The notes: generated by a model not told the origin, from the letters alone. 64,000 nt of DNA from Clytia hemisphaerica (GCF_902728285.1 NW_027104315.1:275032-339031), one strand, 5' to 3'. Counted from the first letter of the stretch, positions 51,896-55,876 are shown. Translations and numbers: made by a program.

Positions 51896-51937
51896 AAAGT
51901 TCTGTTTCATAGGGGTCAATAGCGTGGTTACTAAAAG

Positions 51938-52070
51938 AGGTAACGAGTGGTAACGAGTGGTAACGAGTGGTAACGATGTGGTAACGAGTGGTAACGAGGT
52001 GGTAACGAGGTGGTAACGAGTGGTAACGATGTGGTAACGAGGTAACGAGTGGTAACCAGTTGAAAACGGT
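51938..52070. repeat. (GGTAACGAGT)n 10-bp satellite, about 13 units, outer cap of the left palindrome arm
   Basis: Read directly. It is mirrored at 54811-54937 as (ACCACTCGTT)n. Confidence 0.8.
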
Positions 52071-52139
52071 GGCCCTAAGTTTCCAAAATTGAATTTCTCG
52101 ATTCTGGTGTTTTTGCAACAGATGCTGATGGCTCTTGAG

Positions 52140-53601
52140 GTTCTGCAACAGGACCTGGCAGATCTGGTAAATGTGCAGTAGGAATTGGAGATTTAGGCGA
52201 ATGTTATGGTGGAGTTGATGGATCTGGTGAATGTGATGGTAAAGTTGGTTGTTTGGGTGAGTGAAATGGTGGAATTGATGGTTCTGGTGAATGTGAATCA
52301 AAGATTGATGGTTCTGGAGGTTCTGCATCAGGAGTTGGCGATTCTGGGGAATGTGCATCAGGAGTTAGTGATTCTGGTGAATATAATGCTGGTGTTGATG
52401 GATCTGATGAATCCAATGGTGGAGTTGGTGATTTTGGTGAATGTGCATCAGGAGTTGATGCTTCTGGTGAATGTACAGCAGGAGTTGGTGGTTCTGGTGA
52501 ATGTACAGCAGGAGTTAGTGGTTCTGGTGAATGTACAGCAGGAGTTGGTGGTTTTGGTATATGTGCAGCAGGAGTTGATGCTTCTGGTGAATGTGCAGCA
52601 GGAGTTGGTTGTTCTGATGAATATGCATCAGGAGTTGCTGGTTCTGGTGAATGTGCAGCAGGAGTTGTTGATTCTGGCGAATGTGAAGCGGGAGTTGGTA
52701 ATTCTGGTGAATGCAATGGTGGAATTGGTGGTTTTAGTGATTGTACAGCAGGAGTTGGTGATTCTGGTGAATGTGGAGCAGGAGTTGGTGGTTCTGGTGA
52801 ACGCAATGGTGGAGTTGGTGGTTCTAGTGAATGTACAGCAGGAGTTGGTGATTCTGGTGAATGTACAGTAGGAGTTGGTCATTCTGGTCAATGTGCAGCA
52901 GGAGTTGGTGGTTCTGGCGAATGTGCAACAGGAGTTGGTGGTTCTGGTGAATGTGCAACAGGAGTTGATGGTTCTCGTGAATGTGATGGTAAAGTTGGTT
53001 ATTTTGGTGAATGCAATGGTGGAGTTGATGGTTTTGGTGAATGTGCAGCAGGAGTTGGTGGTTCTGATGAGTGTGCCGCAGGAGTTGGTGGTTCTGGTGA
53101 ATGTGCAGCAGGAGTTGGTAATTCTGGTGAATGAAATTATGGAGTTGGTGGTTCTGGTGAATGTACAGCAGGAGTTGGTGGTTCTGGTGAATGTGCAGCA
53201 GGACTTGGTGATTCTGGTGAATGTGTAGCAGGAGTTGATGGTTTTGGTGAATGTGCATCAGAATTTGATGGTTGTGGTGAATATAATGCTGGTGTTGATG
53301 AATCTGGTGAATGTAATGATGGAGTTGGTGGTTCTGGTGAATATACATCAGGAGTTGATGGTTTTGGTGAATGTGCATCAGGATTTGATGCTTCTGGTGA
53401 ATGCGATGATAGAGTTGGTTCTTTTGGTGAATGCAATGGTGGAGTTGATGGTTCTGGTGAATGCAATGGTAAAGTTGGTTGTTTTGGTGAATGCAATGGT
53501 GGAGTTGATGGTTTTGGTGAATGCAATGGTGGCATTGATGGTTGTGGTGAATGTGCTGTAGGAGTTGATAGTTGTGGTGAATTTGCAGCAGGAGTTAATA
53601 T
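52140..53601. repeat. 30-bp minisatellite, left arm of the large palindrome (consensus ggtgaatgtgcagcaggagttggtggttct)
   Basis: About 48 tandem units. Frame +2 mod 3 reads SGECAAGVGG repeats and the minus strand reads HSPEPPTPAV repeats, both with A/T third positions. Frame 0 reads LVNVQQELVV with G/C third positions. Confidence 0.8.
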
Positions 53602-53711
53602 ACTGATAAGTTGATATTGAGCACGTTCATTAACTAGCGAAAAATTTCAGATTCACCATAACTGTATTTTCATTACAACCATGAATGACATCTCAATAAC
53701 AATTTATCAAA

Positions 53712-54700
53712 ATATTAACTCCTGCTGCAAATTCAGCAGAACTATCAACTCCTACCACCATTCATCACAACCTTCAATGCCACCATCAAATTCACCAGAA
53801 CCATCAATGCCAACATCAAATTCACCAGAACTGTCAAATCCTGCAGCACATTAACCAGAACCATCAACTCCTGCTGCACATTCACCAGAACCACCAACTC
53901 CTGCTGTACATTCACCAGAACCACCAACTCCTGCTGCACATTCACCAGAATCACCAACTCCTGCTGCACATTCACCAGAACCACCAACTCCTGCTGAACA
54001 TTCACCAAAACCATCAACTCCACCATTGCATTCACCAAAACCATCAACTCCACCATTGCATTCACCAAAACCACCAACTCCTGCTGCACATTCACCAGAA
54101 TCACCAACTCCTGCTGTACATTCACTAGAACCACCAACTCCACCATTGCATTCACCAGAACCACCAAGTCCTGCTGCACATTCACCAGAAGCATCAACTC
54201 CTGATGCACATTCACCAGAATCGCCAACTCCTGATGCACATTCACCAGAACCACTAACTCCTGCTGTACATTCACCAGAATCACCAACTCCTGTTGCACA
54301 TTCACCAGAATCACCAACTCCTGCTGTACATTCACCAGAATCACCAACTCCTGCTGTACATTCACCAGAACCACTAACTCCTGCTGTACATTCACCAGAA
54401 CCACCAACTCCTGCTGTACATTCACCAGAAGCATCAACTCCTGATGCACATTCACCAAAATCACCAACTCCACCATTGGATTCATCAGATCCATCAACAC
54501 CAGCATTATATTCACCAGAATCACTAACTCCTGATGCACATTCCCCAGAATCGCCAACTCCTGATGCAGAACCTCCAGAACCATCAATCTTTGATTCACA
54601 TTCACCAGAACCATCAATTCCACCATTTCACTCACCCAAACAACCAACTTTACCATCACATTCACCAGATCCATCATAATATTCGCCTAAATCTCCAATT
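53712..54700. repeat. 30-bp minisatellite, right arm (reverse complement of the left arm)
   Basis: The inner ends gaatttgcagcaggagttaatat (53579-53601) and atattaactcctgctgcaaattc (53712-53734) are exact reverse complements. Confidence 0.8.
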
Positions 54701-54810
54701 CCTACTGCACATTTACCAGATCTGCCAGGTCCTGTTGCAGAACCTCAAGAGCCATCAGCATCTGTTGCAAAAACACCAGAATCGAGAAATTCAATTTTGG
54801 AAACTTAGGG

Positions 54811-54937
54811 CCACCGTTTTCAACTGGTTACCACTCGTTACCTCGTTACCACATCGTTACCACTCGTTACCACCTCGTTACCACTCGTTACCACATCGTT
54901 ACCACTCGTTACCACTCGTTACCACTCGTTACCTCTT
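54811..54937. repeat. (ACCACTCGTT)n satellite, outer cap of the right arm
   Basis: Reverse complement of 51938-52070. Confidence 0.8.
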
Positions 54938-55876
54938 TTAGTAACAACGGTCAATAGACCTGCGAAATATATTGCAGGGGGATGAATTCTTTAAAATTCC
55001 GAAGCAGAAATTCATGGATTTCCGATACCAAAAAAATTTCAGCATTCCGAAATACCGAAGGAGATTTTCCCCGATTTCGAAGAAAAAAGGGTCGATTTCC
55101 GCAATTCCTGTTCCTGATGTTTTTATAAAGTACACTTTTTTTATTCTCATTTGTTGACTTAAAAGAGCGCTCAGAATTAACATTGAGTTATTAGTTCTAA
55201 ATGTTTAGGTACCGCTCCTTAATAATCGGAATCGATTATTTCTAATGGCGGATCGCCGTAAACATCGTAAAGTGAGCCCATAATCTTTATTGTTTCTAAT
55301 ATAAACGATTCCGATGCATGTACCTTACAGATCATGGATGGTTATGGGCGTTTATTGATGAAAACGCCCGTTCGTGTTTAATGTTATTTTCATATCACTT
55401 GGTCTGATGGCGGCAAGAATTTACGGTTCTTCCCATCTGGAGGAGAAATTTGACTCACGTGATGTTGTACGCAATGACGCATACGTCATCGATTTCGAGA
55501 AGACTTTGGCTACTCAATTATAAAGGCCGGTCGCACTTGCGCGCACTGTGATCTCACCTTGGGGCTTCAATCCTTTTTGCTTGGAAAAAAAGATTACGTC
55601 ATAAAAATTTAGCGTGCGCTCGAAAAAAAGGTTGAATACATTTCAACTTTTTTCAACTGTTACTTCAGATTGCGCAAACGGAACCGTTTCATTTTCATTT
55701 TGGCCAATAGCGTGGAAGCTTTGATCGAAAAAGTGTGATCGCAGCACGGGCAATTGGAGACCAGCCTTAAGTCAAGTTACGATGTAAACATCATAAACAA
55801 TGACGTCACTTTCGATTATTTCGATTTTGGACATTTTCAATATTTAATAGTTTAGGAAATATTGTTATCTATTTGG

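Follow-up and report, generated by a model that had tools for sequence, protein, structure and literature searches.

Introduction

Foldback (FB) elements of Drosophila melanogaster consist almost entirely of long terminal inverted repeats (TIRs), in which tandem repeats have a period of 10 bp on the outside and of about 30 bp further in. Their arms are unequal, most copies have a short non-coding centre, the target duplication is 9 bp long, and the repeats of 10, 20 and 31 bp derive from one another. For these D. melanogaster elements, PMC3169594 cites Potter 1982. In Tetris of Drosophila virilis, the TIRs contain tandem repeats and reach 1.7 kb, the middle domain is non-coding, and the target-site duplications (TSDs) measure 8–10 bp (PMC4079207). 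Tm1 of Meloidogyne has TIRs made of variable numbers of repeats of about 14 bp, unequal arms and TSDs of 8–10 bp (PMC3169594). Mutator is the superfamily to which both have been assigned or attributed (PMC4079207, PMC3169594). Galileo, from the Drosophila buzzatii group, also has long, internally repetitive TIRs; it is a foldback-like member of the P superfamily that generates 7-bp duplications, and its THAP-type transposase is known (PMC3573991). Galileo shows that separate superfamilies have each given rise to elements of foldback shape.

Here, we analyse a long inverted repeat in a 64-kb stretch of Clytia hemisphaerica DNA (hereafter, the window). With a probability of roughly 70%, we read it from its sequence organisation as one inserted class II (cut-and-paste) DNA transposon of the foldback type, non-autonomous and 3027 bp long.

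Results

Unequal arms of tandem repeats surround a short unique centre

The inverted repeat reported by the first-pass annotation was confirmed and extends from 51923 to 54949. Its arms run from 51923 or 51927 to 53601 and from 53712 to 54945 or 54949, as reverse complements around a 110-bp spacer (53602–53711), which recovers the earlier coordinates with slightly extended ends. The left arm measures 1679 bp and the right arm 1238 bp, and both are built in the same order from the outside in, starting with a 16-bp terminus and continuing with a 10-bp repeat in about 12 copies, a unique 39-bp segment, and a 30-bp minisatellite. On the plus strand, the left terminus CGTGGTTACTAAAAGA (51923–51938) is followed by the outer satellite (GGTAACGAGT)x12 (51939–52060), by the unique segment (52061–52099), which is 100% identical to its right-arm partner, and by 50 units of the minisatellite with the consensus GGTTCTGGTGAATGTGCAGCAGGAGTTGGT (52100–53601), whose edge units are more diverged than those in the middle. 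On the minus strand, the right arm comprises about 36 minisatellite units, the inverse of the left array (53712–54783), the other copy of the unique segment (54784–54822), the outer satellite (GGTAACGAGT)x11 (54823–54933), and a terminus (54934–54949) whose reverse complement, CGTTGTTACTAAAAGA, matches the left terminus with one mismatch. Tandem-repeat detection gave 46.6 copies at 77% matches for the left 30-bp array and 30.2 copies at 82% for the right one. The first-pass annotation had placed a 10-bp satellite outermost in each arm and a 30-bp minisatellite behind it, in agreement with these data; its estimate of about 40–48 units per arm is too low for the left array and too high for the right one.

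The same annotation had described the locus as a near-perfect palindrome, which is accurate for the outer third and not for the inner arrays. The outermost ~620 bp (about one third) of the arms are almost identical: the block 51999–52206 is 100% identical to 54884–54677, and the outer 15 units are equal in both arms, except for one unit with a 9-bp deletion. The inner parts diverge through some 16 gains or losses of whole units and through many substitutions. Overall, complementarity between the arms is 77–86% without gaps and reaches 96.6% when whole-unit gaps are allowed. When the inner 1.4 kb was folded as single-stranded DNA, the computed energy was −510 kcal/mol, indicating a strong hairpin potential. 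The sequence of the 110-bp centre is unique, and we found neither an ORF nor a transposase in it.

A direct 8-bp repeat flanks the termini

The 8-mer GTCAATAG lies immediately outside the left terminus (51915–51922) and again, in direct orientation, immediately outside the right one (54950–54957). The left junction thus reads GTCAATAG followed by CGTGGTTACTAAAAGAG, and the right junction CTCTTTTAGTAACAACG followed by GTCAATAG. If read from 51914, the left copy becomes the 9-mer GGTCAATAG; the repeat can be taken as 8 or 9 bp, and the 8-bp reading yields the best-matching termini. Apart from this direct 8-mer, the flanks are unrelated to each other. For two random positions separated by 3 kb, the probability of a common 8-mer in their 12-nt flanks is about 8e-4. 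Coincidence could account for the repeat at about the 1e-3 level; we take the repeat to be the target-site duplication. The earlier description of the locus does not include the direct 8-bp repeat. Outside it, the flanking context is TTTCATAGGG on the left and ACCTGCGAAATAT on the right, predicting an empty site of the form ...TTTCATAGGG GTCAATAG ACCTGCGAAATAT... (in short, ...CATAGGG GTCAATAG ACCTGCG...).

Because its termini are defined and flanked by this 8-bp duplication, the locus is best interpreted as a foldback mobile element. Its anatomy points the same way, since the duplication is combined with unequal tandem-repeat arms and a non-coding centre. The TIRs are very long relative to the element (96% of its length) and consist of tandem repeats whose numbers vary between arms (x12 versus x11 and x50 versus about x36); the middle domain is short (110 bp) and lacks coding capacity; and GTCAATAG flanks the termini on both sides.

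Comparison with described foldback elements

The element resembles FB in consisting almost wholly of very long TIRs and in having outer 10-bp and inner ~30-bp repeats, unequal arms, a short non-coding centre and a short flanking duplication. It differs in that a unique 39-bp segment parts the two repeat types, in the duplication (9 bp in FB, 8 or 9 bp in Clytia) and in the host (a hydrozoan rather than an insect), and it has no sequence similarity to FB. We also considered whether the 30-bp unit derives from the 10-bp unit, as in FB. At lag 10 the 30-bp unit matches itself at 6 of 30 positions, and its best match to three tandem 10-bp units is 12 of 30, compared to a shuffled mean of 12.8; this derivation was rejected.

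With Tetris and Tm1 the element has in common a non-coding middle, duplications in the 8–10 bp range and a repeat number that differs between arms, whereas their repeat units are of other sizes, namely 220 bp for Tetris and about 14 bp for Tm1. Moreover, a copy with a MULE/Phantom transposase is known for Tm1 and none for the Clytia element. Like Galileo, many copies of which contain nothing but two TIRs and a spacer, it has long, internally repetitive TIRs; the duplications differ (7 bp versus 8–9 bp).

A non-coding, hairpin-prone minisatellite was one of three options offered by the first-pass annotation, and it came nearest to our interpretation. An ordinary minisatellite would resemble this locus in its 30-bp unit, whole-unit variation, uniform middle and AT-biased decay. 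In contrast, the Clytia arrays form an inverted pair inside defined termini with a target duplication, and it is these termini and the 8-bp repeat that the option missed.

The element is present once in the window

Searches with the terminus, the 10-bp motif and the 30-bp motif, as well as BLAST with the whole element, revealed no further copy in the window. The 21-mer GTTACTAAAAGAGGTAACGAG is confined to the ends of the element, where it lies on opposite strands, and none of the three motifs appears elsewhere in the 64 kb (chance expectation, 0). BLAST found no empty site in the window, using a reconstructed junction that lies a few bases off the final boundaries. Terminus and unit patterns had no match in metagenome, viral and prokaryotic contigs, collections that hold no cnidarian genomes. 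Neither a transposase nor an autonomous partner was found in the window, and there is no single-exon gene within 10 kb of the element. A second foldback-like element, unrelated to the first, is located 930 bp downstream, and Clytia therefore carries foldback-like elements in its genome. The spliced actin of the window is identical to Clytia hemisphaerica XP_066923529.1, which confirms the cnidarian source presumed by the first-pass annotation. In five long ORFs located outside the element, Pfam detected reverse-transcriptase domains only, and three retroelement ORFs elsewhere in the window were absent from the protein and gene-position collections.

These results bear on an alternative that we regard as unlikely, namely that the locus is immobile and arose when fork template switching or break-induced foldback duplicated a local minisatellite in inverted orientation, with the 8-mer as coincidence or microhomology. 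The single copy in the window, the absence of anything similar in the scanned DNA collections (without cnidarian genomes) and the missing transposase all agree with such an origin, as does the tendency of minisatellites to rearrange, evident here in the whole-unit differences between arms. However, the duplication ends sharply at matching 16-bp termini that lie outside both tandem repeats, and the flanking 8–9 bp repeat is direct rather than inverted, with the low chance probability given above. Palindromes made by template switching are not expected to give a direct duplication flanking both outer ends. In addition, the layered arrangement of terminus, 10-bp repeat, unique segment and 30-bp repeat matches that of described foldback elements.

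The first-pass annotation had also raised the possibility of an assembly artefact, such as a chimeric foldback read or mis-joining within the minisatellite, which we consider very unlikely. Assembly of tandem arrays and inverted repeats is difficult, the ORFs of the locus are missing from the protein collection, and the unit counts of the inner arrays may well be inaccurate. Nevertheless, a foldback chimera would have duplicated the flank in inverted orientation as well, whereas the direct 8-mer is all that the two flanks have in common. Differences between the arms take the form of whole-unit indels, substitutions and a 9-bp deletion instead of scattered, error-like changes, the 110-bp centre is unique, and a complete terminus is present at both ends.

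The open reading frames lack a coding signature

The remaining option of the first-pass annotation was a gene for a secreted or structural protein of repetitive sequence, present in two inverted copies, to which we add a recently dead pseudogene and a unit perhaps captured by a transposon. The product would be either a Gly/Cys-rich repeat, GSGECAAGVG, read towards the centre, or a Pro/Thr/Ser-rich one, HSPEPPTPAA, read away from it. Our analysis did not support this option, which now appears very improbable.

Its appeal comes from openness and composition. The GSGEC and HSPEP frames have open stretches of 270–290 codons, and openness in these two frames had been correctly noted; however, five of the six frames are nearly open (only 3–9 stops per arm), and stops occur in every frame. 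The frames are nearly open because the consensus unit contains no stop codon. The longest ORF, of 310 aa, lies in the G/C-ending LVNVQQELVV frame, the very frame that had been set aside as unlikely to be coding. As described before, third positions in both candidate frames are A/T-rich (95%, versus 33–37% at positions 1 and 2), and G is frequent at first positions. The two frames are not independent, as their third positions are common to both. The Cys codon alternates between TGT and TGC, but TGC is tied to one unit subtype (GAATGCAATGGTGG) and not scattered.

Neither arm contains an intact frame. Each candidate frame has a stop in the degenerate unit at 53120–53149, in line with the shared break that had been reported; it is not the only break, since the GSGEC frame has further stops at about 52136 and 52262, both present in both arms. 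No ATG heads the frames at the array starts. Relative to a column-shuffle null, we observed 2 stops in the GSGEC frame, where 4.2 ± 1.4 were expected, and 5 in the HSPEP frame, where 3.4 were expected, so stop depletion was not seen. The non-consensus fraction at codon positions 1, 2 and 3 was 0.13, 0.23 and 0.14, respectively. The most variable position was therefore not the third but the second of the GSGEC frame, equivalent to the first of the HSPEP frame. Both tests for coding selection, on variability by codon position and on stop depletion, were negative.

Autocorrelation of the 30-bp unit yielded 14–15 of 30 matches at lags 3, 6 and 9, compared to 4–9 at other lags. G/C sites are changed twice as often as A/T sites, with G>A changes dominant. 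A degenerate (G-N-A/T)x10 triplet unit together with AT-biased decay accounts for the A/T third positions. The strong period-3 composition, in which every third base is A/T in 95% of cases, would at the same time agree with a unit that descends from ancient coding sequence.

Database searches, in which the decapeptide proteins were sought among proteomes including those of Clytia, did not help the gene pair either. A word-indexed search of 5.8 billion proteins, which include Clytia RefSeq and transcriptome-derived proteomes, returned no homologue at E ≤ 1e-3 for the HSPEP, GSGEC and LVNV frames. Exact look-up of ten ORFs from the element found none of them among 15 billion proteins, Clytia proteomes included, or in the gene-position collection, and no Pfam or Rfam family matched within the element. 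An exhaustive phmmer search with the GSGEC frame produced 93 matches (best E = 8e-44), with identities given overall as 14–48%. The six matches that we inspected belong to unrelated proteins, whose short periodic repeats are different ones (GIDRHADCMR, GEPKA, GTGHSGETDA, SGASTSGIVG, GFTTQGVDGS and QSGEPAAGII), at 21–48% identity; these six were taken as periodicity artefacts and rejected as homologues.

Known hairpin-RNA loci of Drosophila are likewise built of inverted tandem-repeat arrays, and folding predicts a very stable stem, but a locus whose read-through stem of about 1.2 kb would give rise to siRNAs or piRNAs is only a slender prospect here, as no complement to the unit, and hence no target, is seen elsewhere in the window and Rfam has no matching family.

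Discussion

Our analysis indicates that this locus is most likely non-coding mobile DNA and not two copies of a gene for a repetitive protein. Under the foldback interpretation, a transposase encoded elsewhere in the genome would have bound the termini, and the phased 10-bp subterminal repeats probably served as additional transposase-binding sites. The target would have been cut with a stagger of 8–9 bp, and repair of the stagger after insertion would have left the duplication. The non-coding 30-bp arrays may then have expanded and contracted by slippage or unequal exchange, which would explain both the unequal arms and the greater uniformity of the middle units compared to the edges. The identity of the outer arms could have been kept either by recent insertion or by inter-arm exchange. 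The rearranged inner part and the unique centre would render the palindrome imperfect and, therefore, tolerable in vivo, and the codon-like appearance would be that of a degenerate (G-N-A/T)x10 triplet repeat decaying under AT-biased mutation.

Regarding superfamily, Mutator/MULE elements, among which Drosophila FB and Phantom-type elements are counted, make target duplications of 8–11 bp, usually 9 bp, and hAT elements make 8-bp duplications and have a terminal motif of the (T/C)A(A/G)NG type. The termini of the Clytia element, CGTGG and CGTTG, do not match this hAT motif. A duplication of 8 or 9 bp is compatible with Mutator, and also with hAT, P and others, and assigning the element to Mutator from duplication size is a guess.

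Most likely, this is an ordinary kind of mobile element. A far more ambitious reading strikes us as a long shot: the locus would be the founding member of an undescribed cnidarian foldback family whose triplet-periodic minisatellite has a coding origin (a captured Gly/Cys-rich or Pro/Thr-rich exon), and its 1.2-kb stem, once transcribed, would be a natural hairpin-RNA source of small RNAs with a regulatory or genome-defence role beside parasitism. Our literature searches, which had repeat databases outside their scope, found no description of foldback elements in cnidarians, and this absence is weak evidence of novelty.

If the foldback interpretation is true, its chief use lies in genome annotation, which should mask the locus as a class II foldback element and predict no mucin-like or Gly/Cys-rich gene there. 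It also illustrates that a triplet-periodic minisatellite can have long open frames, and A/T third positions like those of codons, without being coding. In flies, foldback elements promote inversions, deletions and the birth of satellites (PMC4079207, PMC3573991). A foldback family in Clytia, a model jellyfish, would bear on genome instability and on assembly quality.

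Architecture of the inverted repeat

A large inverted repeat occupies positions 51923–54949 (3,027 bp), and its two arms account for 96% of the element. From the outside inwards, each arm is composed of a terminus, a 10-bp satellite, a 39-bp unique segment and a 30-bp minisatellite. The 16-bp termini (left, CGTGGTTACTAAAAGA; right, in inverse, CGTTGTTACTAAAAGA) differ by one mismatch. The satellite, GGTAACGAGT, is found in 12 copies at 51939–52060 and 11 copies at 54823–54933, so that the left array is longer by one unit (11 bp). One 39-bp unique segment per arm separates it from the minisatellite (consensus GGTTCTGGTGAATGTGCAGCAGGAGTTGGT), which comprises 50 units at 52100–53601 and about 36 units at 53712–54783; exact unit counts of these inner arrays may be unreliable. 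The arms meet at a unique central spacer of 110 bp (53602–53711). Elsewhere in the 64-kb window we did not find the terminus, the 10-bp or the 30-bp motif, and none would be expected by chance.

Directly outside both termini, and overlooked in the first-pass annotation, lies the 8-mer GTCAATAG in direct orientation (51915–51922 and 54950–54957), which can alternatively be read as the 9-mer GGTCAATAG. Beyond the 8-mer the left and right flanks are unrelated. For two points in this window separated by 3 kb, the chance of an 8-mer in common between their 12-nt flanks is approximately 8e-4. Cut-and-paste insertion characteristically leaves such a direct duplication next to matched inverted termini. 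The best explanation for the element, to which we assign a probability of about 0.7, is a non-autonomous foldback-type DNA transposon.

The surroundings of the element are rich in repeats. A LINE-like C-terminal reverse-transcriptase ORF at 51142–51675 (+) ends around 240 bp upstream of it, and further retroelement remnants were found at 40568–43448 (−) and 3153–3719 (+); the ORF set at 40.5–43.4 kb matches Pfam RVT_1 and, weakly, zf-RVT. Approximately 930 bp downstream there is a second foldback-like or MITE-like element (55877–56745, 869 bp), unrelated to the main one, with arms of about 297–320 bp (96% identical, with small indels) around a 252-bp centre. These arms consist of tandem repeats of about 20 bp, each with the palindrome GGCGGCCGCC. 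This second element may have a TA duplication (TA-CCGTCGCTGATC...GATCAGCCACGG-TA), which, if present, would suggest a Tc1/mariner-type partner. Two oppositely oriented actin genes, separated by about 8 kb, also lie in the window, at ~18100–20353 (+) and 28323–29124 (−). The spliced product of the first exactly matches C. hemisphaerica XP_066923529.1 and XP_066930006.1. The second is interrupted by a frameshift into two overlapping ORFs, and so represents a pseudogene or contains a sequencing error.

Coding potential of the 30-bp array

One of three readings offered in the first-pass annotation took the arms for a pair of repetitive protein genes, open in two frames with A/T-rich third positions. 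The compositional bias is real and strong: A or T accounts for 95% of third positions, versus 33–37% at the other two. The two candidate frames, GSGEC (GSGECAAGVG, reading toward the centre) and HSPEP (HSPEPPTPAA, reading away from it), have the same third positions, so their signals constitute one observation and not two. Both are nearly open, but so are five of the six frames (3–9 stops per arm), because the consensus unit has stops in one frame only; the longest ORF, of 310 aa, lies in the LVNV frame (LVNVQQELVV), dismissed previously for its G/C third positions. Neither arm contains an intact frame, no ATG heads the arrays, and the GSGEC-frame stops at ~52136 and ~52262 are common to both arms. 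With a null in which bases were shuffled within each unit column, the stop counts were reproduced for both GSGEC (2 observed, 4.2 ± 1.4 expected) and HSPEP (5 observed, 3.4 ± 1.4 expected).

Bases depart from the consensus at a frequency of 0.13 at codon position 1, 0.23 at position 2 and 0.14 at position 3, the opposite of the variability produced by purifying selection on a protein. Per-site change at G/C sites is about twice that at A/T sites, with G>A dominant. This is a pattern of AT-biased neutral decay, in which the third positions, being already A/T, changed least. Moreover, the unit is internally triplet-periodic (self-matches of 14–15 out of 30 at lags 3, 6 and 9 versus 4–9 at other lags) and eight of its ten triplets follow a G-N-(A/T) pattern, so a codon-like composition is built in without the need for selection. 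An ancient coding origin of the unit is conceivable. Divergence from the consensus averages 7.7 and 6.8 differences per unit at the array edges and falls to 3.4 in the middle, as is usual for arrays evolving by unequal exchange.

A word-indexed search of 5.8 billion proteins returned no match at E ≤ 1e-3 for the HSPEP, GSGEC or LVNV frames. Both the RefSeq and the transcriptome-derived proteomes of C. hemisphaerica are part of this collection, so any gene model that spanned the array in one of these frames would have matched. None of the element's ORFs was present in the protein collection by exact-sequence look-up, and neither Pfam nor Rfam gave a match in the element. An exhaustive phmmer search with the GSGEC frame against 1.84 billion representatives gave 93 matches (best E = 8e-44). 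The six top matches that we inspected were all unrelated proteins with other short periodic repeats (GIDRHADCMR, GEPKA, GTGHSGETDA, SGASTSGIVG, GFTTQGVDGS and QSGEPAAGII; 21–48% identity), and we do not regard the matches as homology. The scores are inflated because a few chance identities per period multiply over about 25 periods; E-values of tandem-repeat queries should not be taken at face value, as 8e-44 was reached at ~21% identity. All the coding tests that we ran fail, and the pair of protein genes is not supported.

Divergence between the arms

The palindrome reported in the first-pass annotation is real in outline, and overstated in detail. Complementarity of the arms is 77–86% without gaps, and identity reaches 96.6% when whole-unit gaps are allowed. 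By unit-by-unit alignment, the outer 15 30-bp units, quite diverged among themselves, are the same in both arms except for one right-arm unit with a 9-bp (three-codon) deletion and two substitutions (52190–52219 versus 54672–54693), and the block 51999–52206 is 100% identical to its inverse partner. Deeper inside, approximately 16 whole-unit gains or losses and many substitutions separate the arms, so "near-perfect" is valid for the outer third alone. As single-stranded DNA, the inner 1.4 kb would form a very stable hairpin (−510 kcal/mol). An assembly artefact in the form of a foldback chimera is unlikely, since it would have inverted the flank too, whereas the actual flanks share only the direct 8-mer; whole units, the 9-bp deletion and substitutions set the two arms apart, and the centre is unique sequence.

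Relation to foldback transposons

Arms making up 96% of the element, built of tandem repeats and unequal in length, around a tiny non-coding centre are the described foldback-type anatomy. The classical Drosophila FB element (Potter 1982) reportedly has a period of 10 bp at its outer ends and of 31 bp deeper in the arms, a layout strikingly similar to the 10-/30-bp one found here. Unlike in FB, however, the 30-bp unit does not derive from the 10-bp one: it matches itself at only 6/30 positions at lag 10, and aligned to three 10-bp units it scores 12/30 at best (shuffled mean, 12.8). The terminal inverted repeats (TIRs) of Tetris can reach 1.7 kb, and tandem repeats lie inside their outer domain; its middle does not code, and its duplications are 8–10 bp (PMC4079207). 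In Tm1, variable numbers of ~14-bp repeats in the TIRs make the arms unequal in size, and duplications are again 8–10 bp (PMC3169594). The TIRs of Galileo are long and repetitive inside, with many copies consisting only of two TIRs and a spacer (PMC3573991). The literature searched yielded no description of a foldback element from cnidarians. Most foldback elements have been assigned to Mutator (PMC4079207). The 8–9 bp duplication fits Mutator, and likewise hAT or P. The termini lack what we take to be the hAT terminal motif.

From the observed structure, termini and duplication, we infer that a transposase encoded elsewhere would have bound the termini, with further binding sites probably provided by the phased 10-bp repeats, as proposed for the tandem repeats in Galileo and Tetris TIRs (PMC4079207). 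The element would have inserted at a target cut staggered by 8–9 bp, and its arrays would afterwards have gained and lost units through slippage or unequal exchange. Changes at the centre are an established way in which palindromes become stable. With its rearranged inner part and unique centre, this palindrome is imperfect and would, for that reason, be stable enough to persist.
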